64,000 bases of DNA, taken from positions 1 through 64,000 of IMG/VR virus record IMGVR_UViG_3300027896_000011; one strand, written 5' to 3'. Shown here piece by piece: positions 2,055 through 39,683 of this stretch (the stretch's first letter is position 1; each line of letters starts with the position of its first letter). Below the pieces are notes generated by a model. It was not told the origin of the DNA. It did not search any database and was given only the letters and a program-made list of their open reading frames with translations. The position numbers were made by a program, and so were the translations under genes. The stretch comes from a virus.

Positions 2055-3977
2055 ATGTCTGTGTTGCCAGCAGACCATATAATGAGGAAACTGGCTGTTC
2101 AGGTTTTGACAGCCAAAAATGAGTTTGCTCCTGGTATACCGATAGCTAGAGAAACAAAGGTTATCCCTTATGTCTCTCCAGATAGCCCAGAAACTTGGCA
2201 TATTTCCACGCAAATTCATGAGGCTGAGAAGGCTGGTAGGCATCTTGATCTACGTCTCGTGTCTCCTGATAATGATGCTCATTCTTGGGCTATTCCTGCT
2301 GGTGAATTACCTAAACCTGGTCATAAAGTTCTTGCTATTAAGCAGCCTACGCATACTAAGGAGTACGCGGCCAGAAAAGGTACCTTTCAGATCGAAGAAG
2401 GATACGGAAAAGGAACTGTAACCTCTTCTGGTTTAGTTCCTGTAGAAGTAGTGAGGTCTAAACCTGGGCATATTCGTTTTAATCTATATGGCGGAAGAGG
2501 TATACAAGAGTTCAATTTAATTGATACTCCGAAGGGTACTCTTCTTCATAACATTACGTCTACTGCAGAGTCAGGTGTTCGTGGAGATAAAGGGCAGCCA
2601 ATACCGAATGCCAAACCGGATTATAAAGAGTTAAATACTGGTTCGGTGCGATTTGATAATCCTGAGGAAGTACATCAAGCAAAGGTAGATGGCGCTCATT
2701 GTACGGTTCACTTACGTCCTGATGCACCAGTCAAGGTGTTTTCTTTCAGGCCTACAGAGCGAGAGTCAGGGGTTATAGAGCATACCCATAAGCTTCCTAA
2801 TTACCGCAGTTTGATAGCTCCAAAGGAGTTGGCAGGCACTGTACTGCGTGGGGAACTTTATGGGGTAGACACAGCCACGAATCGTTCTCTCCCTGCAGAG
2901 ACGACGGGAGGGCTTTTGAATGCTTCTGTATGGAATAGTAGGGAGAAGCAAAAAGAGCTAGGGGCTGTTTTGAGACCTACTATTTTTGATGTGGTACGTT
3001 ATAAGGGTAAGGTAGTAGAAAATGCTCCGTATTCAGAGAAGTTGAGGATATTGGAAGAGGTACAGTCCAAGGTGCCTCGTTTACAGCTTCCACCTACAGC
3101 TCGAGATACAGCGGAGAAGGTGAAGTTATTTGGGCAGATACAAAGTGGGCAGCATCCAGTTACTTCAGAGGGTGTGATTATATGGAATCTTAATGATTCC
3201 CGCCCTACGAAAGCTAAATTTAGACCTGATGTAGATGTTGAGGTTGTGGGTGTGACTAAGGGGGAAGGGAAGCATGAAGGGCGTATTGGGGCTTTGCAGG
3301 TGCGGTTGCCTGGTAAGGATGCTATTACTCATGTGGGTACTGGGTTTTCTGATACACTGCGGGAGGATATTGCAAAAGACCCGCAGAAGTATATTGGTAG
3401 AGTAGCTAAGGTTCATACTATGCAAGTATTCCCAAGTGGCAAGCTTCGAGCTCCTTCTTTTGGAGGTTGGCATCTCGAGAAGGGAAAGGAAGCTAGTATA
3501 GTTAAAGAAGGGTCGGATAAGTTAAACATAGCAGCTTATGTGATTGGTCCATCTGGGGCAGGGAAGACAACTTATGTAAAGCAGCATTATCCAGCGGATA
3601 AGTATTTCATTCTTCATAGTGATAGGTACGCTAGGAAGCGTTCTAACGATACTGTTTCTATAGATTGGGAGAAAGCTTTATTGGATGGACAGATGTCTGG
3701 AAAGCCTATTGTGATAGATTCTTACCACACTAATTCAGATCTTATGAAGTTGGCTAAAGAGAAGATTCTTTTAGATCCGGGTAAGGTAATAACTCTTAGT
3801 CAGCTTATAAGCCGTAGAAAAAAATCTCTTAATGGTGTATACAAATACTCACCAGAAGAGAAGCTCGAACGATTTAATAAGAAAGCACGACCTACTGCAG
3901 AAACTCTTGGATTTAAAGAGAAGACTGCCACTATTCGTACTTTAGCGGAAAGAGTATTAAGGGGTCATCATGTCTAA
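2055..3977 (+). CDS. Fusion of LigD-type 3'-phosphoesterase, ATP-dependent DNA ligase and P-loop kinase
   Basis: PE motifs QIHEA..HLDLRL, SWAIP, LAIKQPTH, YGKGTV. Ligase motifs KVDG, GELY, FDV, EGVII, KAK and OB-fold VGTGFSD/LRAPSF. C-terminal Walker A GPSGAGKTT and IVID. Confidence 0.85.
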   Translation: MSVLPADHIMRKLAVQVLTAKNEFAPGIPIARETKVIPYVSPDSPETWHISTQIHEAEKAGRHLDLRLVSPDNDAHSWAIPAGELPKPGHKVLAIKQPTHTKEYAARKGTFQIEEGYGKGTVTSSGLVPVEVVRSKPGHIRFNLYGGRGIQEFNLIDTPKGTLLHNITSTAESGVRGDKGQPIPNAKPDYKELNTGSVRFDNPEEVHQAKVDGAHCTVHLRPDAPVKVFSFRPTERESGVIEHTHKLPNYRSLIAPKELAGTVLRGELYGVDTATNRSLPAETTGGLLNASVWNSREKQKELGAVLRPTIFDVVRYKGKVVENAPYSEKLRILEEVQSKVPRLQLPPTARDTAEKVKLFGQIQSGQHPVTSEGVIIWNLNDSRPTKAKFRPDVDVEVVGVTKGEGKHEGRIGALQVRLPGKDAITHVGTGFSDTLREDIAKDPQKYIGRVAKVHTMQVFPSGKLRAPSFGGWHLEKGKEASIVKEGSDKLNIAAYVIGPSGAGKTTYVKQHYPADKYFILHSDRYARKRSNDTVSIDWEKALLDGQMSGKPIVIDSYHTNSDLMKLAKEKILLDPGKVITLSQLISRRKKSLNGVYKYSPEEKLERFNKKARPTAETLGFKEKTATIRTLAERVLRGHHV

Positions 3978-20658: not shown

Positions 20659-20686
20659 GAAAGGGGGACGGTTAGTCCCCCTTTTT
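20659..20686. terminator. Bidirectional intrinsic terminator ending the replication operon
   Basis: AAAGGGGGAC-GGTTA-GTCCCCCTTT with A/T tracts on both sides. Confidence 0.8.
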
Positions 20687-20885
20687 AAATTGAATGTCTA
20701 CGAATTAATGAGATGATCTTCTCTTTAGTAGATACGTCGTCATCTGTTTGATAGATCACTAATCCATTTAACAGATTTTGTAACTCCTCTACATTTAAAG
20801 TATCAAGTTGCTGAGAAGGGATACACTGTGTTTCATTTGTAGTGGGAGCCCTAAGTCCATAAGTATTAGGGCTTATTCTTTTCCC
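20685..20885 (-). CDS. -1 frameshift extension (~64 aa) of the 20873-21373 gene
   Basis: Slippery G GGA AAA at 20885-20879, 5-nt spacer, 8-bp stem at 20847-20873; the -1 frame stays open up to the terminator. Confidence 0.65.
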   Translation of the reverse strand, partial: GKRISPNTYGLRAPTTNETQCIPSQQLDTLNVEELQNLLNGLVIYQTDDDVSTKEKIISLIRRHSI

Positions 20886-21373
20886 GGTTCAAAATCATTA
20901 TTGGCTTTTGTGATTTCAGCGTCTACATCAGCTGGTTCAAGGTCAGTAGTACCAAGGAACATTTTAAGCATAGCCATGAGCACATAGACTTGTCGTTGAA
21001 CGTCAATAACTTCTGACTTTAGATTCTTTTCCAACTCATCTACTGCTAATCCAAGTTTATCGATACGAGTAATAACAGCATTCTCTTCTTTCTTGGAAGT
21101 TTTAGTAGGCTTTTCTGTAGGGGTTGGAGCTACCTCTTCAGATACCTCTTCCGTCTCTGGTTCAGGCTCTGGAACTGACTTCAAGCTAGTTGTCTTTTTA
21201 CCAGGTTTTGTCTCAGCTGCGCCACCTTGCTTGCTAAGAATGAATTCAATTAGGTCTTTGGATGCAGCATTTACTGCTTCTTTTGGGGTCATACCAAATT
21301 CGTCACTAACTGCTAATGTACGAATTTCAGATCTGCGTAGTCCTTCGAGTTCTTCACGTGTGTAATTAGCCAT
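20873..21373 (-). CDS. Protein with N-terminal Rho-N/HeH-like motif, acidic linker and coiled coil
   Basis: YTREELEGLRRSEIRTLA...KDLIEFIL. Confidence 0.65.
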   Translation of the reverse strand: MANYTREELEGLRRSEIRTLAVSDEFGMTPKEAVNAASKDLIEFILSKQGGAAETKPGKKTTSLKSVPEPEPETEEVSEEVAPTPTEKPTKTSKKEENAVITRIDKLGLAVDELEKNLKSEVIDVQRQVYVLMAMLKMFLGTTDLEPADVDAEITKANNDFEPGKE

Positions 21374-21602
21374 TTCGGTGTCTTCTCCTCATTTTCGGCG
21401 ATGCACTCTTTACTGTTTGTAATTTAGGATTTTCGAATCTGAGCGCCCAAGATCCGAAATCCCTTTCAATCTGAAAACGTGCATTCATTTCACTTTCGGC
21501 TACACGTTCCCAGGCACTGCAATGGTACCCTGTTACTATTTTATTTTCATCAACTACCGAACAATCTTTTAGATGTCGGCATGATGTACACGCCCTCATC
21601 AC
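21366..21602 (-). CDS. Small Cys-containing hypothetical protein
   Basis: CTSCRH..C...HC; coupled to both neighbours. Confidence 0.6.
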   Translation of the reverse strand: MMRACTSCRHLKDCSVVDENKIVTGYHCSAWERVAESEMNARFQIERDFGSWALRFENPKLQTVKSASPKMRRRHRNG

Positions 21603-21970
21603 GAATCTCTTTTTCCCCGCACCATATCCGCTTTATTCATACGTCTAAAGCCTTCGTCATGATTAATAACAGCGCAGATAGCTACTCGAGCCGGTGGACA
21701 AAGAGGACAGAAGTAATCTTCAGATTTACACTTTAATTGCCCTAATATTGTGTCAGGGTGTGTCTCCTGCATGTAAAGCATTAGTTCTCGCTCATCATCT
21801 ATAGGGTCCGGACTATCTATTTCGTCCGGAGATATAGTACCTGTGAGTAATCCTGTCAATACCTCTCTTCCCATTCCACGGTGTGCAGAAAGATGTCCAG
21901 CCTTTTTGCATAGAGCAATCAGTTCGGTTACATTTAGTTCATCGAGAGGATGTACTTTCTCTAGCATCAT
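21599..21970 (-). CDS. Hypothetical protein with HeH-like N-terminus and Cys cluster
   Basis: LDELNVTELIALCKKAG; C.....CPLCP...C. Confidence 0.6.
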   Translation of the reverse strand: MMLEKVHPLDELNVTELIALCKKAGHLSAHRGMGREVLTGLLTGTISPDEIDSPDPIDDERELMLYMQETHPDTILGQLKCKSEDYFCPLCPPARVAICAVINHDEGFRRMNKADMVRGKRDS

Positions 21971-22403
21971 ATTGTTCCTTAGTCAGACCCACTAGGTCCT
22001 CAGTGATAGGTTGCAGGGATATATACATCCCTGGATGTTCCGGATCACAATGTTTCTCCAGAACCAACCTGAAGTTATGCTCATCCCCTATACCTATTGC
22101 CTCAGAAATGGTGTCCTCTATGAGCTTAACTTGGTTGCTAAGATCTATACGCTTATACCGCATTCCCTTCGTAGATTTCAGGTACTCAACTTGATCAAAG
22201 AATACACTTAAGCGTAGCTCATATGGTACGTTCTCTTTAAGCCCCAAAAATGCTGCTCTACCATCTTGTTGAATAGCTCGCATAGCAAAGACTTTAAACG
22301 CCCTTGCCTCTGGAGATAGAAACCGTCCCTTCCCTGGGATGTTTATGTATATTTTGTTGGATGATGGGGGTAGTTTATCTATCCACACACGTAGTTGGCT
22401 CAC
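21939..22403 (-). CDS. RusA-like Holliday junction resolvase
   Basis: PPSSNKIY and RIDLSNQVKLIEDTI...GIGD match the RusA DxDNxxKxxxD pattern. Confidence 0.75.
   Translation of the reverse strand: MSQLRVWIDKLPPSSNKIYINIPGKGRFLSPEARAFKVFAMRAIQQDGRAAFLGLKENVPYELRLSVFFDQVEYLKSTKGMRYKRIDLSNQVKLIEDTISEAIGIGDEHNFRLVLEKHCDPEHPGMYISLQPITEDLVGLTKEQYDARESTSSR
22152..22180 (-). promoter_or_regulatory. Intragenic phage-consensus promoter TGAAAT-N17-TATAAG
   Basis: Full motif match inside the RusA-like gene, upstream of the last three operon genes. Confidence 0.5.
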
Positions 22404-22999
22404 TGACGACCTCTCCGGAAAACAGAAAGAACATCACTTCTAGCTGGACCAGCTTTGAAATTATTGGCTTTACGTTCTCCTGTATACCTATGCCCATCAA
22501 CATTACTATTATGCTCACAACCAGTAATAACCCTAGAGATAGTCTCTATGTCCCGGTATAACCCCTCCGTAATGGCTTTGAGCATAGTATATTTGTATTC
22601 AGCTGTTTCAAGGTCTGCATTGAGCTTGATGTACCGTAGGTCTGTACGTGTAGCATCATCTTTATCAGATACTGTCTTCTCGGCTGATTTCTCTCTTCTG
22701 ATTTTAGCCCAGGCAAAATCTCTAGCAGACTCTGCTGTATTCTTTGTTATACGGGCTTTAGGAACTAGGCTATTAGAGTAGTCATACCATGCTGTATACC
22801 AGTTTAGTAGGTCTAGTAACTGAGACATAGTCAAGTCGCTTATACGTTCTGGTAGATAAGGTCTATCTGCTAGGTCTCCATCACGTCTAGGTCTTTCTGC
22901 TTGAGGAAAGCCCATCATGGACATGTCTGCGTCTCCTTTGTCTACAGCCTGTGCGTACAAAGATATCCCTTGTCCATATTCTGCTTCAGTGATTGGCAC
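22400..22999 (-). CDS. Helical protein, possibly a UvsY-like recombination mediator
   Basis: KTVSDKDDATRTDLRY...ISRVIT; located near the RecA gene. Confidence 0.45.
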   Translation of the reverse strand: MPITEAEYGQGISLYAQAVDKGDADMSMMGFPQAERPRRDGDLADRPYLPERISDLTMSQLLDLLNWYTAWYDYSNSLVPKARITKNTAESARDFAWAKIRREKSAEKTVSDKDDATRTDLRYIKLNADLETAEYKYTMLKAITEGLYRDIETISRVITGCEHNSNVDGHRYTGERKANNFKAGPARSDVLSVFRRGRQ

Positions 23000-26216: not shown

Positions 26217-26756
26217 TTAACCTTTGGCTGTAGCCCAACTATAACCACTACCACCATCAACATTTAACGGAACGGAAAGATCAAAAGGAAGTGGATGTTC
26301 CATTTTATGTTTGATGATTGGTAGCGCCTCTTCTACGGATTCTTCAGGTACCTCGAAAATAAGTTCATCATGTATTTGGAGAAGCATTTGTACTCCCAGA
26401 TTTATTAAAGTTTGATCAAATTCACATGATATCATAGCTCTTCTAGCTACATCTGCTGCAGAACCTTGAATGCGTGAATTAACTGCTTGGCGTTCTGCTC
26501 TAGCTAATTCTCCACGTTCTCTACCAGTCATCGCACTACGGTACATTCCTCCAAGAGTTTCCATACCTGGAAATCTACGAGGACGGCTGGTAACAGTACG
26601 GACCATGTGTTGCTCACGTATCGCTCTATGAGTATCTTGTATAAATTGTCTAACTTTGGGGTATGGACGGAAATAGTCTTCAATTTTGACTTTAGCGTCA
26701 TTTACAGATATGCCGAGGCTGTGTGCAAGTTTATTTGGACCTTCACCATAGGTTAA
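26217..26756 (-). CDS. polA: Family A DNA polymerase, exon 2
   Basis: LTYG (end of motif B), ERQAVNSRIQGSAAD, motif C QIHDEL. Confidence 0.9.
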   Translation of the reverse strand, partial: LTYGEGPNKLAHSLGISVNDAKVKIEDYFRPYPKVRQFIQDTHRAIREQHMVRTVTSRPRRFPGMETLGGMYRSAMTGRERGELARAERQAVNSRIQGSAADVARRAMISCEFDQTLINLGVQMLLQIHDELIFEVPEESVEEALPIIKHKMEHPLPFDLSVPLNVDGGSGYSWATAKG

Positions 26757-27034
26757 CGTACTAATCCCAAGTTTCCTTGGGTACTGACTATACCTTTGAA
26801 GAGCATTGGAGTTGAGTAGTTTCCAATTACGTAACATTTTGCTCTTCTTCCACCGTATCAACAAGAAAACGTGAATGACTACACTGCTTGATTGATCAAG
26901 CTTCTTGTTGAGGACATCCTCCGGTGTCCAAGTCGATACACTACCCTTATTGGGCAGCACGGGATTGCCTTGTGCAAATGCATTTAGGTTTCCCCGTTTT
27001 GAGTGGATTTTACTTCGGCTTAACACATCGGTCT
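26757..27034 (-). ncRNA. Group I self-splicing intron (278 nt, no homing endonuclease) in polA
   Basis: Exon 1 ends in U and the intron ends in G. P1 CUUCGGU/GCCGAAG with U-G; core AAAACGGGGAA / AAUCCCGUGC / UCGACU / AAGGUAUAGUC; P9 CCCAAG-GAAA-CUUGGG. Splicing restores KTVGFG|LTYG in frame. Confidence 0.9.
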
Positions 27035-28429
27035 ACCGAAGCCGACTGTCTTGCTAGCTTGTCGGGCAAAACACATAGCTTTTTCAGTATCATTGAGTAT
27101 TGCTTCTGGGTTCTTTTTTTTCTTTAATGCCTTATTTAGCTCATCATAATCATACCCGTACATCATGCAGGCGGTACCTGCATGAATATCCCAACCACGG
27201 TTTATGACTCCTATCATGTTCTCGTCATTAGCCCCATGTGCCAGTAAGCGCATTTCTAGTTGGCTATAATCTAGTACGATAAACCGGTATCTGTGTTTAG
27301 GAATAAATGCTTCACGTAAGTGATATATATCGTTATCAGGACGAGGAATATTTTGAAGGTTAGGATCAGTGGAACTTAATCTTCCGGTAACCGTCACATG
27401 TTGTGTAAGTGTTGGATGTATTCTTCCATCTGGATCTGCACACTTAGAAAGACCTTCTACATACGTGCTTTTGATCTTATTAACTTTGCGTAGTTGTGAA
27501 ATCAATTTACATACTTCTACACCCTCTTCCGCATATATGTTTAATGTGCTTTCATCTGTAGAGGGTAACTGCCCTTTAGTCTTTTTGATTGGTTTAAGTT
27601 TGAGCTTATCAAAAAGTAGCCAACGAAGTTGGGCAGTACTTCGTAAGTTGATCTCTTTTCCTGCCACTTTATTAATCTTCCGTTCGAGACGAACAATTGC
27701 ATCGGACATCTGAGGTTTTAAGTCTTCTAGATACCCGGTATCGACCATAATACCTCTTCGGATCATATTGTAAAGCACCCGTGTAAAAGGCATCTCAACT
27801 TCTTGAAAGTAATCCCATAAAGAGATGTTATCTACCATCTCTTCCGCAGCTAGACGTTCTCTTAGTACATCTTTTACCTTGAATGTGGCGTAGGCGTCTA
27901 GTGAAGCGTAATTGATAGCAGCCCTGAAATCTTCTTTAAGTCCGCGAAGAATACGAGTTTCAGTGCTGTCATCTTTAAACTTCTTTGCAAAGGTATCTTT
28001 GAAACTGGCCATGTTCATGTTGCAGTAATCTAGAGCAGTTTCTTTTAAACCATGGCAGCCTTGTCTGTTCTCATCATGCAGCCAGTCCATTGCAAGAGTA
28101 CAGTATGCGTTACCGATGGGGGCGCGTACTCCTGAGTTAGCTAGCATACAGAAATCGAATGTCATATTAGTGAGCCACCAAATCATGTTTGGGTCTTGAG
28201 AAAGTTCGGCATCAAAGATGCGTAACATGTCTCTACTGAAGCAGTATCGTTTTTCCGGAGAAGGACAAGCAGACCAAACTACAATATGATCTTTCCAACG
28301 GTTAAGTCCTGTGGTTTCTGTATCTATTGCACACTCTCCAGTATCTTTAGCGTGCCTTATAAATTTCATCATCTCTTCCGGGGTGTCTACCCAAACTACT
28401 GGGGGTAGTGGTTGAAGAATTCCAGCCAA
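27035..28429 (-). CDS. polA: Family A DNA polymerase, exon 1 (3'-5' exonuclease and polymerase)
   Basis: IDTETTG, YASLDA, TGRLSSTDPNLQNIP, motif A DYSQLEMR, motif B RQASKTVGFG. Confidence 0.92.
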
Positions 28430-29642: not shown

Positions 29643-30633
29643 GTTCGTTTCTCCATTCATTGAATGTTTTTGCCGTATCTAGGCTTTCTTGGATTTCTTC
29701 TTTACTTAGATTGTCGGGTTGTGCGCCTTCCTCATATATGTCTGGGTAATCACATACTAGAAAGTTTAGCCCTCGATTTATCAGTCTTGGTCCTGCGTCA
29801 GCTGTTCCCTCCATTCCTGCTTTGTTTTTATCTAGGAAGAAGATGACCCAGCCATCATGCTTCGCTAGAGTTGCTTCTTGTATATCACTCATTCTACTTC
29901 CCTGTAAGGCTACAGTGTTTTCGAATCCTTGTTGTAGCATCCACAGGCAAGCTTTATATCCCTCAACTACTATAACGGTATCTAATTCGGTATGGAACAA
30001 CTTAGGGTAGACATTATGCATGTTCCATAGAAAATGATGGTTCTTTATTTCGTATTGTTTGTATTTAGCGACATCTTCGTAGTCATCGGATGCAAAACGC
30101 ATCAGATCTTCCTTCTTATACACCTTGTACCTAGGGAATGCACCAGTAACAGTACGTCCACTAATGCCCACCAAGTTACCATATAAATCCCGGATGGGAA
30201 ATGTGATTCGTTCATACTCTTTGTCAAAACCTATGTCCATTTTCTGTAGTAGTACTTCATCAAAACCGTCATCTATTAATTTGATCGGGCAATAATCAAA
30301 TACTCCTAGTAGACTCTCTTTTAGGAAATGTTTACCGTGTAGGTCTAAAGCCTTAGGTGGCGCATTTACTTTGACTTCTCTTGCCAGCTCTAATACTAGG
30401 TCTATCTTCTGTGCGCTTTCTCCCATCGCTTTAAGAAATTGAGGGAAAGTTCCTTTTTCACCACATGCATGACAGAAGTATAAACCGTTGCGGAGATTGA
30501 TATAGAAAGATGGTGTTTTTTCATTTCCATCTTTATGGAAAGGGCAAGGCCCTCCGATATTACTGTTACCGGAGGGCTTTACAAACCTTAAGTACTTCTT
30601 AGCTGACTCGAGTACTACATCAGACAGAGCCAC
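29575..30633 (-). CDS. dnaG: DnaG-type primase
   Basis: CPFHKDGNEKTPSF, CHAC, RITFPIRD, GRT; TOPRIM VVEG and FLDKNKAG. Confidence 0.9.
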   Translation of the reverse strand: MALSDVVLESAKKYLRFVKPSGNSNIGGPCPFHKDGNEKTPSFYINLRNGLYFCHACGEKGTFPQFLKAMGESAQKIDLVLELAREVKVNAPPKALDLHGKHFLKESLLGVFDYCPIKLIDDGFDEVLLQKMDIGFDKEYERITFPIRDLYGNLVGISGRTVTGAFPRYKVYKKEDLMRFASDDYEDVAKYKQYEIKNHHFLWNMHNVYPKLFHTELDTVIVVEGYKACLWMLQQGFENTVALQGSRMSDIQEATLAKHDGWVIFFLDKNKAGMEGTADAGPRLINRGLNFLVCDYPDIYEEGAQPDNLSKEEIQESLDTAKTFNEWRNEHGILTNKKTYDRPGTTWVHREP

Positions 30634-33358
30634 TGGCTGGTCCTCTACGTGAGATATTGATTGCTGGTCCTTTATTCCTTAGCTCCTTTCCAGGTGTAGG
30701 AGCGTTATGATCTGGCATTTCTTCTGGTACATAGTTCTTCCAGAATATTTCTTTAATGTCTTTAGAGTCGTTAAACACTACAGGCATCATCATTGGCTTT
30801 CCATCTGCTCCTACTTTTGCCCCGCAATCGTCATACACTTGCCGGTATAATTGAGAGAAGTTAGTTGCTGGGTCTCCATGAATAGCAAATCCTGCTATAT
30901 TAGCTTCGCGGGAAGCAGTAATAGCAAGTGCTAGTTCATTATGACTAGAATCTACTCTCTTCTTTATGATTTCAATAGCTAAATCAGTATCCTGTGCATA
31001 GGAGTCTGAGAAGGACATATTGATTGCAGACTTACCTTGTTGGTCTTCTTTTTCACTAGCTCTGTTAGCTTGCAGGGTAGCTACAATTGGTCTTTTGATG
31101 TCTTGAGCTAGTTCTTTTAGGTCTTGAGAGATGGAAGCTTGATCTCCCCATTTCATAGACCTAGCACCGTTATCTCTATCATTACGCATTAGATAGACTG
31201 CATCAGCAATTATCAGGTCTGGTTTGAAATCGTCTATCTTATTTCTTAAACCACGAACGCCTCCGCCATACTTCTTATCTTGTCTATCACTGGTAATGAC
31301 TATTCCTTTTTGTTTTCCAGTTTCAAGACTACAGGTAACCTCGTCCTGTTTCATTGTTTCCATTATGGAGTAGAAGTGGTCTTCCATACTGCCACCGTGA
31401 GGATGCGGAAGTGTATGAAGTAAACCATGTTTCCATTCTCTGTATGGTGTGCCTATAAGAAGGCAAACACATCTCTCCATCATTTGTTCTGGAGCCATTT
31501 CACGGGTATAGATAAGTATCTTACGGCTGCCATAATCGTAGGCGTACATTCCTATATTCAAGGCTATCCAGGTTTTGAGACTGTTGTGTGTTATAAAGTC
31601 CTCTACTACGAATACCGGTTCTCCCTCCTCTATGGTGATGTCATAACAGTCTTTAGGCCCTAGTTTTTCAATGCTTAGTATTGGCTCCCACCGTATGTCA
31701 GAATTGGCCCAGTCAAGTAGCTCTGGAGCGTCTAAGTGCTCTGCTAATCTGCGCAATAAATGTCTACTAATGTTTCCTGTTCTTCTGAATAATTTTCCTA
31801 TGGAGAAGCCTGACCACAAGTATTTCCACTCTTTGATACCCTTAGCAGTAAGGATAGCCTGCATTAACTCATCGGAGTACGGAATACCATCATCGTGTCT
31901 TTTGCGTCTGATATCGGCTTCCGCTAATCTTTGTAGTTTCTTTGCTTTATGTCCACATTTTAGATCAAGTAGCTTGTGTAGTACTGCGTGCTGTTCTTGT
32001 GAGAATATGTGTAGATGCCATGCTGTAGTGCCGAAGTTAGTTTCTACCTCAGATATAGTTCCGGTAATGCCAAACCGTAGTAATAGGTGCTTTACGTCTC
32101 GAATTAGGTTATAGCTAGCACTACACCAGGACACAGTGCCTTTTCCTACCGTACCATCTGTATCTGTATATGCAGATAAGAAAGCCTTAATAGCGGTATC
32201 GTGGCTTCGAAATAAGACATCTGGTACGTGCTTATCCGGTCCTTTTTGACCATGACAGCCTACCCTCTTTAGTAGGTCTAGTATTGTATTTCTGCTAGTA
32301 GATTTACCAATTATTCTGTACTGTATGTCTTTACACCCATCAGGTTGGTGTAATACTGCTCCTAGTGCCTCTACGTTATCGTATAGATCACCTATTACAT
32401 CCTTGTCTTCGTTTGTGAACTGCACTTCATTTCTAGTATAGTTACCGTCTCCTATTAGATAACCTAGTACTGTAGCTTCTGCGGTACTTAGTGAGTCAAC
32501 TGCGGGAGTAATTGATGGTAGTTTTCTTGCTATGCCTATATATGCTCCGACAGATAACTCCCCGGCAGCTTTGAAAGCCATATTGGGTATCATCAGAGGG
32601 TGGTCTTCCCCTACTTCAATGGTATGGCCACTTTTAGTTGTTATTCTTACTGCATTCTTTATGCCTGCATATGTACCTGAGCACGGACCCCAAGTTAGTT
32701 TGTGCCCTTTTGTGACAGGCACGGAGTCTGGAGGTGTTTCAATGGGAATTAGGCTACCATCTTGAGCCATTACCCGTTGACCAGCTACCACACATTTTGG
32801 CCTGCCATAAAAGATGATGTATTCGCCGTCTTGCATCCCTCTAGTTTCATCGTTTAATACTTTCCAGGGGTATGGTATTCCTTTGAGTACTCCTCGATTT
32901 TTATTTTCCTCGTAGAGATACCGCACAGATTCAATAGATTCAGATACAACAATATCTGTACTTCCTCTACGTTGTTTACCTAGTTCTTTTACTTCCCGTT
33001 CAATATGAGCAATTGCTTCGTCAGGTCTATCTTTCCAATCCTCAATATATGCGGATAGTTTTAAGAGTCTAGAGGATGCATTATGTTTTTGAAAGTCCTC
33101 TATTGTTGAGGACATTTTCATTCTATCTACTGCCGGGAGATCTATTGTAGGAAAATCCGCTTCAATCTGTTCTCGAGTAGGTATGTCTCCGCCAGTTTTT
33201 ACGGCATGATAGAACTTTAACATATGGTCGAAGAGCATACGTGCATCTGAGTCAGTGAGGTGGTCTATACGTATACCGGCATCTATTACGGCCCTCATAC
33301 CGGTAGGACCGACGTCAGCTATTTTCGCTATTAACTTCAGATCTCTATTGGCAGCCAT
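30620..33358 (-). CDS. dnaB: DnaB-like replicative helicase with one intein
   Basis: Walker A GRPK|SLKT after splicing, TREM, IIADAVYLM, QANR, SDSYAQDTD. Start at MAANRD. Confidence 0.85.
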   Translation of the reverse strand: MAANRDLKLIAKIADVGPTGMRAVIDAGIRIDHLTDSDARMLFDHMLKFYHAVKTGGDIPTREQIEADFPTIDLPAVDRMKMSSTIEDFQKHNASSRLLKLSAYIEDWKDRPDEAIAHIEREVKELGKQRRGSTDIVVSESIESVRYLYEENKNRGVLKGIPYPWKVLNDETRGMQDGEYIIFYGRPKCVVAGQRVMAQDGSLIPIETPPDSVPVTKGHKLTWGPCSGTYAGIKNAVRITTKSGHTIEVGEDHPLMIPNMAFKAAGELSVGAYIGIARKLPSITPAVDSLSTAEATVLGYLIGDGNYTRNEVQFTNEDKDVIGDLYDNVEALGAVLHQPDGCKDIQYRIIGKSTSRNTILDLLKRVGCHGQKGPDKHVPDVLFRSHDTAIKAFLSAYTDTDGTVGKGTVSWCSASYNLIRDVKHLLLRFGITGTISEVETNFGTTAWHLHIFSQEQHAVLHKLLDLKCGHKAKKLQRLAEADIRRKRHDDGIPYSDELMQAILTAKGIKEWKYLWSGFSIGKLFRRTGNISRHLLRRLAEHLDAPELLDWANSDIRWEPILSIEKLGPKDCYDITIEEGEPVFVVEDFITHNSLKTWIALNIGMYAYDYGSRKILIYTREMAPEQMMERCVCLLIGTPYREWKHGLLHTLPHPHGGSMEDHFYSIMETMKQDEVTCSLETGKQKGIVITSDRQDKKYGGGVRGLRNKIDDFKPDLIIADAVYLMRNDRDNGARSMKWGDQASISQDLKELAQDIKRPIVATLQANRASEKEDQQGKSAINMSFSDSYAQDTDLAIEIIKKRVDSSHNELALAITASREANIAGFAIHGDPATNFSQLYRQVYDDCGAKVGADGKPMMMPVVFNDSKDIKEIFWKNYVPEEMPDHNAPTPGKELRNKGPAINISRRGPASGSV
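31583..32794 (-). mobile_element. Intein with LAGLIDADG endonuclease in the DnaB P-loop (404 aa)
   Basis: CVVAG...ITHN|S; LGYLIGDG and FLSAYTDTDG. Confidence 0.9.
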
Positions 33359-33368
33359 AGTACCCCTT

Positions 33369-33677
33369 TCACAGTTGACGAATAGATACAATTCCTCCTT
33401 TTGTGAAGATACGAGGGCTGTTCTTTGTTTTTTCGACTATGCAAATGCAATATCGATCTGTCCATTTCAATATACCGTCGTAGTTGAGGTCCAAAATTGT
33501 TTCTATTCTTACTTCTTTACCGTACCAACCTTTAATCTCACTGTGCCAGTTTTCATGCACATTAATGGAGTCCTTAAGTGCACTGACTTCTTTTTGTAAG
33601 TTGAAAACTGCTGATGCAAGTTGTACGTTGTCTATAATGCCACTGTCTCTACGAAAGGTTTCATGTGGTGGTCGCAT
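33369..33677 (-). CDS. Hfq/Sm-like RNA-binding protein with N-terminal coiled coil
   Basis: GKEVRIETILDLNYDGILKWTDRYCICIV...RIFTKGGIVSI parallels Hfq V.IYL.NG..L.G.I..FD.F.ILL...MVYKHAIST. Confidence 0.55.
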   Translation of the reverse strand: MRPPHETFRRDSGIIDNVQLASAVFNLQKEVSALKDSINVHENWHSEIKGWYGKEVRIETILDLNYDGILKWTDRYCICIVEKTKNSPRIFTKGGIVSIRQL

Positions 33678-36858: not shown

Positions 36859-37248
36859 CTAACTACTCTTTGGTAGTGATGTCGCCATCACTAATCCAGA
36901 ACTTTTAGCTCGAAGTTGTTGTTCCATGTCTTTACATGCATTCATGAGATGCTCTACTACGTCTCTTACATCCGGCTGAGCTTCTACGTCAATATACGTA
37001 GTAGCTTTTATATAGATATCTCCACCACTCATAGACAACGGGAATGGAAATATTTTGGTACTAGCAGAAATACTAGGACCTTCTGCGCTCATCAATGCAA
37101 ACAATTGGTGATGAAAAATTCTAGCATTTCTCAGAAAAATAAATTCTCCTCTATCCATACTACGAATGAGTATATCGTTATCCTCGTCAACAAATCCTAC
37201 ATACATGTGCTGTGAGTTACTGTTTCCGAGAATTACTAGTCTGCTCAT
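36859..37248 (-). CDS. Hypothetical protein
   Basis: 129-aa coupled ORF. Confidence 0.6.
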   Translation of the reverse strand: MSRLVILGNSNSQHMYVGFVDEDNDILIRSMDRGEFIFLRNARIFHHQLFALMSAEGPSISASTKIFPFPLSMSGGDIYIKATTYIDVEAQPDVRDVVEHLMNACKDMEQQLRAKSSGLVMATSLPKSS

Positions 37249-39683
37249 TTCTTGTATCTCTCCAGTTCATCAAATGGTCGAAGGATTGTGTATTCAAATG
37301 GACCGCCTTCATCAACAGGCCATTCATTAATAAGTTTCTTTAATTGCCTACACATTTTGTGGAATTTTGGAATGAATACATGGTCGAGTATTACTACTAC
37401 TGGATGATTACCACCTCCGCGATAACCAAGTATGCGTCCCATACCTTGTTGTAGAGTGTTCTTTCCCCCCATATCAATAGCGCCACTACCAAACGGAGTA
37501 AGAAAGAACACAGTATCTAACGTTTTCTCATCTAGTGCTTCTTTAACTAATTGAAGCGTTCCAAATGTTATTTGTTTAGCCTTTAGCGTTTCTATTCTAG
37601 CTGCAGGCTTTTCATCCCCAGTACACAATCCTGAATCTGGGAACATAAGATGAAGCGCTCTTAGTTGATCTACGCTATGACTTAGAGCAAGTATCTTACG
37701 TCCTTTGCTGACTGGTAATTGAAGCTTGTCAGCAATAAACTGATTGTTGGCCGGAAGAGTACCAAGATAAGTCCTCAATTTAGGTATATTGAGTTTACCT
37801 CGAGTATCGTATACCCTGCTTGCAACTTCAGGGTCTCTCAGGTCTATTGTGATTGGGACTTCTTGAAGATAGATACGCGGCTTCACATCTTGAGCTAAAT
37901 CCCGGAAGAAGACAGGACCAATATGATATTGGTAGATAGGCTCCAGTCCATCTTCTCTATTTACTGTAGCCGTCAGTCCATATCTATTTCCATAGAACAT
38001 AGGAGCTGTGTGTATGAAGAGTGGAGCACTTAAATGATGGCAGTTATGCACCACTAGCCCATTAACCAGGTACGTATGTGTGTCTTCTACTTCAAGGTTG
38101 TAGACATAACCGTCTGGACACACCTCTCCAAATTCCGAGTCACTTCCCTGTTCGTAAACCTCAACACTGTCCACCCGAAACCATTTAGTAGCTCGTCTTT
38201 TCTCGCATCTTGGTCCTTCCTGCCCCAATGGGACCGACCATCTACCTCCACATTTATCATTCTCGATGGGCAGGCTATGTCTAGTTTGTAGTGTGTTGGA
38301 TAGCCCCCCTTGTGACGAGGTTTGTGTGTAGGCACTATGTACTCCAGGCACCAACCTTTTTGCTGTAATTGTAGAGCATCGTACAAGATCTTCTGTACCG
38401 TTGGGACGGCTGATCCATTTCCACCCCGTACTGGTGGGCGTAAATCCATGCTCTTTAGCTTCTTTTGTGTAGCTTTTCTTATCTTCAGGTCGAACATAGG
38501 ATTGTTCTTTTTCATTCTCTCTGAGAGGATGTCGGATCTCTGTATATTCGTCCTGCGCATTGTTAATGAGGATATTTTTCGACGGTACTCCATAGAGCAT
38601 GTTTGTGAACAGTAGGCTCTCCCTGATTTTTTGTAGCGGTCTATCTTGCTTTTCTGAGCCAGTATTATGCCCTTTCGGCATGTAGTGCATATTGTAGATA
38701 TGTTGTTCATTTTTAGTTCCTTTTATGTAGTCCCCTGCCGTTAAATTACCTGCTTTAACCCACCCAGTAGCAGTTAGGAATGGGTGAGGAATGGTGCAGT
38801 AGTAGGCCGCACCTTCTACATTTATCTTAACAAGGCACTTTGTTTTTCTTCTTGTTACGCCGATTACTTTTTTATCGACAAATATGTGCGTGCCTTCGTC
38901 ATATGAAGGCACAATGTCCCCAGGCACTATCTTTTCTATGGGAACTCCCCCTATAGGAGTACCTGCGATAAAGCACTCATCATAATATACACCACCAAAG
39001 TACCGATCAAATTTCTCTGGTAATTGTTCATAGCGTATAGCTAGCGTGTTAATCATCGCTAGTACTATTCCTCTTTCTTTCCAGTCCCATTTAGATGGGT
39101 CACCTTGTACCACGCCAACGCCTCCTTCAACATCTAAAAATTTCTCAATACGCTCTTTCCATTGATCTATGAGGGTGGTGTTATTTACGATCACTATTGC
39201 TGGTACACCTTTGTCGGCAATAACTTGTAAAGCTATCTGGGTTTTGCCGCGCCCACAAGCTAGATTAAGTATTCCCCCATCTATTTCTGACATAGCTTTG
39301 TGGGCTCTACGTTGTACATTTTCTTCCGGACGAAGAAAATCCAATACAATTTTGCTTTTGAATTTGATCTTAGTGTATTTAGTAGGTCCTATATCTATGA
39401 TCTGAAAAGGAGCATCTTTATATTGGCTTCTTGGTATGAATTCTCGTGGAACAATTATATGCGTGGCATTTTCTTCCCAAAGTTGCATGAACTCAACCCC
39501 AGTATCTGTCATTACAGGAAACTCGAGTCCTGCTTTTATAGACCTGGGGTTGATATGCTTTTTAGGAATCCAGAGTTGTCTTCCATAGTACCCTTTATCT
39601 GGGTCTAATTTGACTAGTCGTAATTCTGTATTATTTGAGTCGGAACACTTGCCAGAATCGATACCATTCATAGAATCCTCCAC
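37245..39683 (-). CDS. SF2 (SSL2/XPB/UvsW-like) DNA helicase with one intein
   Basis: LACGRGKT, DE|CHH after splicing, GLTAT, EALD, QQGMGRILG. Confidence 0.85.
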   Translation of the reverse strand: MEDSMNGIDSGKCSDSNNTELRLVKLDPDKGYYGRQLWIPKKHINPRSIKAGLEFPVMTDTGVEFMQLWEENATHIIVPREFIPRSQYKDAPFQIIDIGPTKYTKIKFKSKIVLDFLRPEENVQRRAHKAMSEIDGGILNLACGRGKTQIALQVIADKGVPAIVIVNNTTLIDQWKERIEKFLDVEGGVGVVQGDPSKWDWKERGIVLAMINTLAIRYEQLPEKFDRYFGGVYYDECFIAGTPIGGVPIEKIVPGDIVPSYDEGTHIFVDKKVIGVTRRKTKCLVKINVEGAAYYCTIPHPFLTATGWVKAGNLTAGDYIKGTKNEQHIYNMHYMPKGHNTGSEKQDRPLQKIRESLLFTNMLYGVPSKNILINNAQDEYTEIRHPLRENEKEQSYVRPEDKKSYTKEAKEHGFTPTSTGWKWISRPNGTEDLVRCSTITAKRLVPGVHSAYTQTSSQGGLSNTLQTRHSLPIENDKCGGRWSVPLGQEGPRCEKRRATKWFRVDSVEVYEQGSDSEFGEVCPDGYVYNLEVEDTHTYLVNGLVVHNCHHLSAPLFIHTAPMFYGNRYGLTATVNREDGLEPIYQYHIGPVFFRDLAQDVKPRIYLQEVPITIDLRDPEVASRVYDTRGKLNIPKLRTYLGTLPANNQFIADKLQLPVSKGRKILALSHSVDQLRALHLMFPDSGLCTGDEKPAARIETLKAKQITFGTLQLVKEALDEKTLDTVFFLTPFGSGAIDMGGKNTLQQGMGRILGYRGGGNHPVVVILDHVFIPKFHKMCRQLKKLINEWPVDEGGPFEYTILRPFDELERYKK
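38043..38975 (-). mobile_element. Intein in the helicase DExH box (311 aa)
   Basis: CFIAGT, TIPHPF, VYNLEVEDTHTY...VVHN|C. Confidence 0.9.
38087..38710 (-). CDS. Vsr/DUF559-like homing endonuclease overprinted in another frame inside the intein
   Basis: CTTC and YCSQTC Zn finger; YKLDIA...VEVDGRSHW...DARKDELL..FGWTVLRFTN. Confidence 0.8.
   Translation of the reverse strand: MNNISTICTTCRKGIILAQKSKIDRYKKSGRAYCSQTCSMEYRRKISSLTMRRTNIQRSDILSERMKKNNPMFDLKIRKATQKKLKSMDLRPPVRGGNGSAVPTVQKILYDALQLQQKGWCLEYIVPTHKPRHKGGYPTHYKLDIACPSRMINVEVDGRSHWGRKDQDARKDELLNGFGWTVLRFTNREVTRNLERCVQTVMSTTLK

Follow-up and report, generated by a model that had tools for sequence, protein, structure and literature searches.

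Very Probable Programmed -1 Ribosomal Frameshifting, Conserved in an Uncharacterized Gene That Closes a Phage Replication Operon

The DNA analyzed here, referred to as the window, is a stretch of 64,000 nucleotides from a virus (IMG/VR virus record IMGVR_UViG_3300027896_000011, positions 1 to 64,000), whose minus strand carries a replication operon ending with an uncharacterized open reading frame (ORF) of 166 amino acids (aa). Comparison of this phage gene with its relatives makes it very probable that a conserved programmed -1 ribosomal frameshift takes place at its 3' end. This reading is carried by a slippery heptamer that is kept in phase close to the 0-frame stop, by a homologous open -1 frame behind it, and by purifying selection acting on that frame. 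The mechanism itself is canonical; what is new here is the gene family, its replication-recombination setting, and the depth of the conservation.

Shift Site and Reading Frames in the Window

The elements of the proposed frameshift, in the order in which a ribosome would meet them, are as follows.

21373..20873, minus strand: 0-frame gene of 166 aa, an ORF with the 3' end GAA CCG GGA AAA GAA TAA
20889..20891, minus strand: TGA stop in the -1 frame, one codon 5' of the heptamer
20879..20885, minus strand: slippery site G GGA AAA, phased as X XXY YYZ, at which a tandem -1 tRNA slip is proposed
20873..20875, minus strand: 0-frame TAA stop, 3 nt past the heptamer, where termination would give the 166-aa product
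20847..20873, minus strand: stem-loop with an 8-bp stem and an 11-nt loop, beginning 5 nt (spacer GAATA) after the heptamer
20688..20879, minus strand: -1 extension of 64 codons, RISPNTYGLR to IRRHSI, starting with the final A of the heptamer, which is read a second time
20660..20684, minus strand: intrinsic terminator, a 10-bp stem followed by a T-run, beginning one base past the -1 stop

A preliminary description of this DNA had claimed that the gene ends with G GGA AAA in phase, that a 5-nt spacer and an 8-bp hairpin follow, that the -1 frame has no ATG and runs for about 64 codons up to the terminator, and that products of 166 and about 229 aa would result. All of this was borne out: the heptamer was found in phase at 20885-20879, GAATA and the hairpin at 20873-20847 came directly after it, the terminator began one base past the -1 stop, and the frames gave both product lengths.

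With a TGA closing the -1 frame a single codon ahead of the heptamer, a shift could be productive over a region of only 5 codons. The extension ends at a TAA (20687-20685, minus strand) and contains neither ATG nor TTG, and its single GTG would yield 24 aa; the downstream 0 and +1 frames are full of stops. The computed junction peptide is EPGK followed directly by RISPNTYGLR, and the two products would be 166 aa and 165 + 64 = 229 aa long. The background rate of in-phase X XXY YYZ heptamers in the long ORFs of the window was 0.0038 per codon, and GGGAAAA occurred only 4 times in the entire 64 kb.

Conservation of the Slippery Heptamer and the -1 Frame

Related DNA loci were drawn from IMG/VR, JGI, ENA, and Logan and came from independent samples and assemblers. 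Ten recovered loci and the window made up a close set of 11, five further loci formed a distant set, and 14 loci were distinct overall. We asked whether homologues lose the slippery site or the open -1 frame, and found that both were kept in the 14 distinct loci. An in-phase slippery heptamer was present in 14/14, at 0-15 nt before the 0-frame stop; it was G GGA AAA, G GGA AAG, or G GGA AAC in 13 loci and A AAG GGG in one (L011). Among the close loci, 10/11 (window included) carried G GGA AAA in phase, L011 being the remaining one, and the distance to the stop was 0-6 nt. The 10 close loci with enough downstream DNA all had a -1 ORF of 59-65 codons and a closed +1 frame, and the consensus of the extension in the close loci was ..LGPQPP.PGT.STFRQEELE.LG.EELR.LLDGYVIY......TKEQLLGLARK.SV. 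(dots, variable positions). Across all loci, the homologous -1 ORF measured 59-69 codons. In L001, L005, and the window, the -1 frame was closed 2-5 codons before the junction.

The sites in the five distant loci were as follows.

L017: G GGA AAC, 3 nt to the 0-frame stop, -1 ORF of 65 codons
L018: G GGA AAG, 0 nt to the 0-frame stop, -1 ORF of 63 codons
L020: G GGA AAC, 15 nt to the 0-frame stop, -1 ORF of 69 codons
L021: G GGA AAC, 15 nt to the 0-frame stop, -1 ORF of 67 codons
L022: G GGA AAC with a tandem A AAG GGA, 3 nt to the 0-frame stop, -1 ORF of 62 codons

The -1 ORFs of these distant loci were homologous and had a similar ..R.NS[LMI] tail. Since the 0 frame of L020 and L021 runs five codons past the heptamer, the conserved G-N marks the shift site and not merely the C-terminus of the protein. 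At the nucleotide level, the pattern NNG GGA AAN was found in 13/14 loci, down to about 30% protein identity. The Gly codon was GGA, and the codon preceding it ended in G, in 13/13 of the G GGA AAN loci. In the window ORFs, which served as background, GGA accounts for 33% of the Gly codons, and 17% of all codons have a G in third position. The heptamer is the best-conserved nucleotide feature of the 3' end of the gene, so the ratio of the isoforms is evidently under selection.

A corresponding motif was visible in the protein family at large. In a profile search of 1.84 billion representatives, 63 members of the family were recovered, with lengths of 55-303 aa and one architecture common to those of full length. 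Close to an otherwise variable acidic C-terminus, their alignment contained a Gly that was almost invariant and had N or K behind it. G-N or G-K lay within the last 14 residues of 45/62 family representatives, the exceptions being mostly fragments or partial matches. A database search returned 13 close homologues of 136-172 aa (window protein included), none of them fused in frame to the extension, and in the relatives some 270-385 nt behind the gene are left blank by gene callers. No cultured-phage relative was matched when the region, the extension, and two distant members were searched by blastn and tblastn against 50,697 phage records; the family member P0021 had no match in IMG/VR, and the scan of a single metagenome returned only L011 again.

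G GGA AAA occurs in phase once more in the window, at 21611-21617 (minus strand), at the 3' end of the 123-aa ORF at 21599-21970 (CGG GGA AAA AGA). The -1 frame at this position is that of the adjoining 78-aa gene, and a slip there would fuse the 123-aa and 78-aa products. We rejected this heptamer as a second frameshift site, the homologues having CGT GGT AGG or CGT GGC ACA at the same place. It is probably a chance occurrence and acts as an internal control for the conserved site.

Selection on the -1 Frame and the Route of Its Translation

In a codon alignment of ten loci, nonsynonymous diversity (pN) in the extension was well below synonymous diversity (pS) in all pairs, with omega at about 0.1-0.4 for most, and diversity at the three codon positions was 0.31, 0.20, and 0.52, the third position being the most variable. 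pN was also far below pS, with third positions again the most variable, within the first 28 codons of the extension, which lie 5' of an internal Met used by some gene callers. Selection acting on these codons indicates that translation enters the -1 frame at or directly after the heptamer. In the window, L001, and L005, moreover, the -1 frame is closed before the junction and has no start after it, so that only a shift can translate the conserved region. Purifying selection on the extension is exerted in the -1 frame and reaches back to the codons just past the junction.

These data bear on the possibility that the -1 ORF forms a small gene of its own (about 60 aa), whose product would arise through termination-reinitiation or a non-canonical start next to the upstream stop and would never be fused to the upstream product. 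Such a gene would be compatible with L018, in which the 0-frame TAG is overlapped by a GTG and a 62-aa ORF was called, with the 37-aa ORFs called from an internal ATG in L009 and L010, and with the 0-frame stop always being near the start of the conserved -1 region. However, no ATG, GTG, or TTG lies near the 5' end of the -1 ORF in the window and most relatives, and purifying selection already acts on the 28 codons that precede the internal Met. Reinitiation also gives no reason for the in-phase conservation of G GGA AAN at the nucleotide level, and the -1 homology begins at the heptamer even in L020 and L021, where 15 nt separate it from the 0-frame stop. We thus regard an independent gene as improbable and retain a frameshifted fusion.

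The same fusion could instead be produced by transcriptional slippage, with RNA polymerase adding or losing a base in the A-run. A short homopolymer does exist at the site (AAAA; GGGGG in L011), and slippage is a known source of alternative C-termini in bacteria (PMC5009743). The runs are just 3-5 nt long, however (GGGAAAA, GGGAAAG, GGGAAAC), whereas productive bacterial cases have been described at runs of about 9 A or T (PMC5009743), and the feature that is conserved is a phased X XXY YYZ, which is relevant to tRNA re-pairing and not to RNA polymerase. Slippage is therefore improbable, slightly more so than an independent gene, and a ribosomal shift is again preferred.

Single-base indels in homopolymers are common assembly errors, and no in-frame version of the gene was found for comparison; the arrangement might thus be an artefact of a sequencing or assembly indel that breaks up one ORF, or the extension might be an unexpressed non-coding or pseudogenized remnant. 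Against this, the same frame arrangement recurred with different flanks in the 14 distinct loci from JGI, ENA, Logan, and IMG/VR, and the extension had a strong coding signature in the -1 frame. Assembly error is excluded because 14 independent assemblies agree, and artefact and decay taken together are very improbable.

RNA Structure and the Operon Terminator

The hairpin that follows the heptamer in the window has the arms AGCCCTAA (20873-20866) and TTAGGGCT (20854-20847) and a local fold of -11.0 kcal/mol, at the 4th percentile of the 40-nt windows taken from that strand. Hairpins occurred at a similar position in about 6/9 relative loci but were not in register. Fold energies at the site ranged from -4.9 to -16.8 kcal/mol across the relatives, and the per-sequence folds were mostly unremarkable versus shuffles and background. 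The stem-loop of the window is possibly a local stimulator of the shift and is not a conserved one; the only other feature that recurred at the shift sites was the nearby 0-frame stop.

As the terminator begins directly after the -1 stop, the roughly 190 nt past the 0-frame stop lie within the operon transcript. A terminator was found right behind the -1 ORF in 9/11 loci checked (window, L001, L002, L005, L006, L009, L010, L017, and L018), the contigs of L011 and L012 ending too early to judge, and in those nine loci it trailed the -1 stop and not the 0-frame stop. The terminator of the window also scores on the plus strand (20663-20680), so that it may close both the replication operon and the tail/fibre block that converges on it.

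Architecture of the Predicted Proteins

An AlphaFold model based on the family alignment divided the 166-aa protein into a four-helix head (residues 1-50, encoded by 21373-21224 on the minus strand), a charged, disordered linker (residues 51-90), a long helix (residues 93-142), and a short helix (residues 147-161). The predicted local distance difference test (pLDDT) score was about 90 for the head and below 50 for the linker. Residues 4-55 could be superposed on the N-terminal domain of Escherichia coli Rho (1a62_A) with a Z score of 6.0 and a root mean square deviation (rmsd) of 3.2 Å over 48 residues at 25% identity. Foldseek aligned the head with Rho chains at an rmsd of 1.5-1.8 Å over 42-44 columns, with non-significant E-values, and the Atlas structure rows for the head were Rho_N proteins. 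The modeled fold thus identifies the N-terminal domain as Rho_N/HeH-like. At the sequence level, the window protein had no Pfam match to Rho_N, SAP, or HeH above threshold, and Pfam Rho_N matched 1/26 family members at E = 1e-3. The long helix matched generic coiled coils only.

AT-hook-like motifs (RGRP or GRPP with flanking K/R) occur in the disordered linkers of several distant members (P0016, P0023, P0038, and P0062). The linker of the window protein is without such motifs and is rich in Pro, Glu, Thr, and Lys.

On account of the Rho_N-like head, the AT-hook-like linker motifs of distant members, and the DNA-metabolism operon, we propose that the product of the frameshift gene may be a DNA-binding accessory protein of the replication-recombination module.

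It had also been suggested that the extension resembles the HeH motif at the protein's own N-terminus and that of the 123-aa ORF at 21599. This held at the level of the motif: the extension reads L..L...EL..L, a Gly, an extended stretch, and then TKE.LL, and is SAP/HeH-looking. It did not carry over to sequence comparison, as BLASTP found no match of the extension to its own N-terminal domain or to the 123-aa ORF. The hhalign comparison with the family N-terminal head (first helices) gave only a weak match (E = 0.0016, 16% probability, 29 columns), and the profile match to the 123-aa ORF was likewise weak (14 columns, E = 0.018). hhalign against alignment A2 was weak as well (E = 0.011), and a hit to Ish1 (E = 0.054) fell below the cut-off; a PDB sequence-profile search gave weak centrin matches only, at E of at least 0.028, and the extension had no Pfam match above threshold. 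A second HeH-like head is thus a plausible but weakly supported reading of the extension.

Operon and Gene Neighborhood

The source record of the window is an IMG/VR virus of 167,997 bp, estimated to be 89% complete. On its minus strand, the operon comprises genes for a DnaB-like helicase with an intein, a DnaG-type primase, a family A polymerase (two ORFs), HU-like and RecA-like proteins, a Cas4-like exonuclease, a RusA-like resolvase, a 123-aa protein, and a 78-aa Cys-rich protein, with the frameshift gene last. The DnaB, primase, PolA, HU, RecA-like, Cas4-like, and RusA-like neighbors agree with the location at the end of a replication operon given in the preliminary description. On the opposite strand, a block of baseplate and fibre-like genes lies upstream, and the frameshift gene adjoins a baseplate/tail-fibre block in convergent orientation.

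The last part of the operon is a five-gene cassette (20873-22999, minus strand) consisting of a 199-aa ORF, the RusA-like resolvase, the 123-aa and 78-aa genes, and the frameshift gene, and it was kept in all relatives, close and distant (L001, L002, L005-L007, L017, L018, and L020-L022). The 123-aa protein is Cys-rich with an HeH-like N-terminus, and the 78-aa protein has CxxC and a basic tail; no family could be assigned to the three small proteins of the cassette. The neighbor directly upstream of the frameshift gene is conserved, and its stop overlaps the start of the frameshift gene by 8 nt (ATGGCTAA).

21366..21602, minus strand: 78-aa Cys-rich gene

This context decides against a displaced tail assembly chaperone of the G/GT type with its classical tail frameshift, a highly improbable reading that the heptamer of lambda G/GT type and the convergent baseplate and tail-fibre block might suggest but that we rejected on context and architecture: in all relatives, the gene ends a conserved cassette inside the replication-recombination operon and does not lie between tail tube and tape-measure genes, its product is built from an HeH-type head, a linker without order, and a long helix, no Pfam or PHROG tail-chaperone match was obtained for the window protein, the extension, or 26 members (remote homology could escape such searches), and the extension, at about 64 aa, is shorter than typical T domains.

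Other genes of the window were also noted. The family A DNA polymerase occupies two adjacent ORFs (26217-28429, minus strand) with a 7-nt overlap, the first (469 aa) containing the 3'-5' exonuclease and the N-terminal half of the polymerase domain, and the second (269 aa) the C-terminal half (profile positions 217-380). The DnaB-like helicase (30620-33391, minus strand) carries an intein with a LAGLIDADG domain, and a ResIII-type helicase (37245-39683, minus strand) has a HINT/intein insertion. On the plus strand, the ORF at 2055-3977 joins a LigD-type phosphoesterase, an ATP-dependent ligase with an OB domain, and a P-loop AAA_33 kinase-like domain.

Proposed Mechanism and Function

According to the frameshift model, most ribosomes would read GGA AAA GAA and stop at the TAA, giving the 166-aa protein with head, linker, and long helix. 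A minority would slip one base back on G GGA AAA, whereupon the tRNA-Gly in the P site would pair with GGG in place of GGA and the tRNA-Lys in the A site with AAA as before; in the relatives, re-pairing would be perfect or near-perfect (GGA to GGG, and AAA, AAG, or AAC to AAA). Slipped ribosomes would then read AGA ATA AGC onward and add 64 residues, yielding an isoform of 229 aa whose reading frame closes just short of the operon terminator, and the ratio of the isoforms would be set by the frequency of the slip. We infer that the slip is ribosomal, and its efficiency may be a few percent, by analogy with the G GGA AAG of lambda. G_GGA_AAG is highly shift-prone in E. coli, and g-t genes of archaeal viruses use G_GGA_AAC and G_GGA_AAG (PMC5009743). 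The long isoform would possess an additional C-terminal helical module, possibly SAP/HeH-like, which we propose might serve as a second binding head for DNA or for a partner.

Some observations weigh against this model. With respect to the shift, no in-frame fused form was found among homologues of 91-291 aa, and a search for longer proteins with the extension profile recovered none that were fused, which is weak evidence. RNAalifold on nine loci found no consensus helix and no covariation, the hairpin was weak or absent in L009 and L010, and the window has no upstream Shine-Dalgarno-like stimulator. The GTG of L018 is a possible independent start, and AAC in the A site shifts more weakly than AAG in E. 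coli (PMC5009743). With respect to function, the model of the extension reached a pLDDT of 63, with three helices at extension residues 22-26, 30-37, and 46-62, and its fold gave nothing meaningful in Foldseek against the PDB or in a wide VIA-align search. Pfam, PHROGs, and the Atlas features search provided no named family for the gene, and the functional proposal draws on weak fold and motif similarity.

A wider interpretation is offered tentatively and is more likely to be wrong than right. The shift might be a family-wide stoichiometry device that sets the proportion of one-headed to two-headed forms of an oligomeric HeH/AT-hook DNA-binding protein, which would bridge or organize replication-recombination intermediates beside the Cas4-like nuclease and RusA-like resolvase. 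A clade of large uncultured phages would then have evolved, independently, an isoform logic like that of tau/gamma, and the shift would be the first deeply conserved one tied to such a phage module.

Comparison with Known Systems

Conserved programmed frameshifts in tailed phages are known mainly in tail assembly chaperones and in a few capsid genes. The present case would add an equally well-conserved shift outside tail assembly, in large uncultured phages of about 100-170 kb. Gene callers miss about 190 nt of coding sequence per member and leave a false intergenic gap, and the family would be a clean set of new positives for annotation pipelines and for frameshift predictors whose training relied on tail chaperones. 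Selection on the isoform ratio could also provide a handle on the roles of the HeH protein and of its conserved small Cys-rich neighbors. The understanding of how frameshifting works is unchanged.

Among the closest parallels is lambda gpG/gpGT, with G GGA AAG. Both systems have G GGA AAN in X XXY YYZ phase. As in lambda, the proposed slip would fall close to where the upstream ORF ends, would leave most chains short and give a minority an extended C-terminus behind the same N-terminal part, and would apparently do so without a strong conserved RNA stimulator. The proteins are unrelated, however, and the present gene belongs to a replication-recombination cassette and has an extension of only about 64 aa. 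Gene 10A/10B of T7/T3 is likewise shifted by -1 a few codons before the 0-frame stop, which adds about 50-60 aa to a minority of chains, but it encodes a structural capsid protein, uses a different heptamer (G GUU UUC), and is not known to be conserved over a family with the deep divergence of the present one.

With regard to protein domains, the N-terminal 50 residues superpose on Rho, as expected of Rho_N/SAP/HeH (LEM-like) domains, and the extension has the L..L...EL..L ... TKE.LL pattern; unlike recognized members of these groups, the family had a single Rho_N match among 26 members at the E-value given above, and the extension had no significant profile or fold match.

In its setting, the gene is like dnaX tau/gamma, in which recoding in DNA metabolism sets the ratio of isoforms that differ in C-terminal interaction domains. 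There is no homology between the two, and the present protein is without AAA+ clamp-loader domains; dnaX shifts at A AAA AAG with strong Shine-Dalgarno and stem-loop stimulators and about 50% efficiency, and stimulators of that kind are not conserved in the present family. A minority dnaX form is closer, in that its tau arises by the frameshift and its gamma ends at a 0-frame stop behind the site (PMC5009743); in the family described here, the 0-frame stop likewise comes directly after the shift site.

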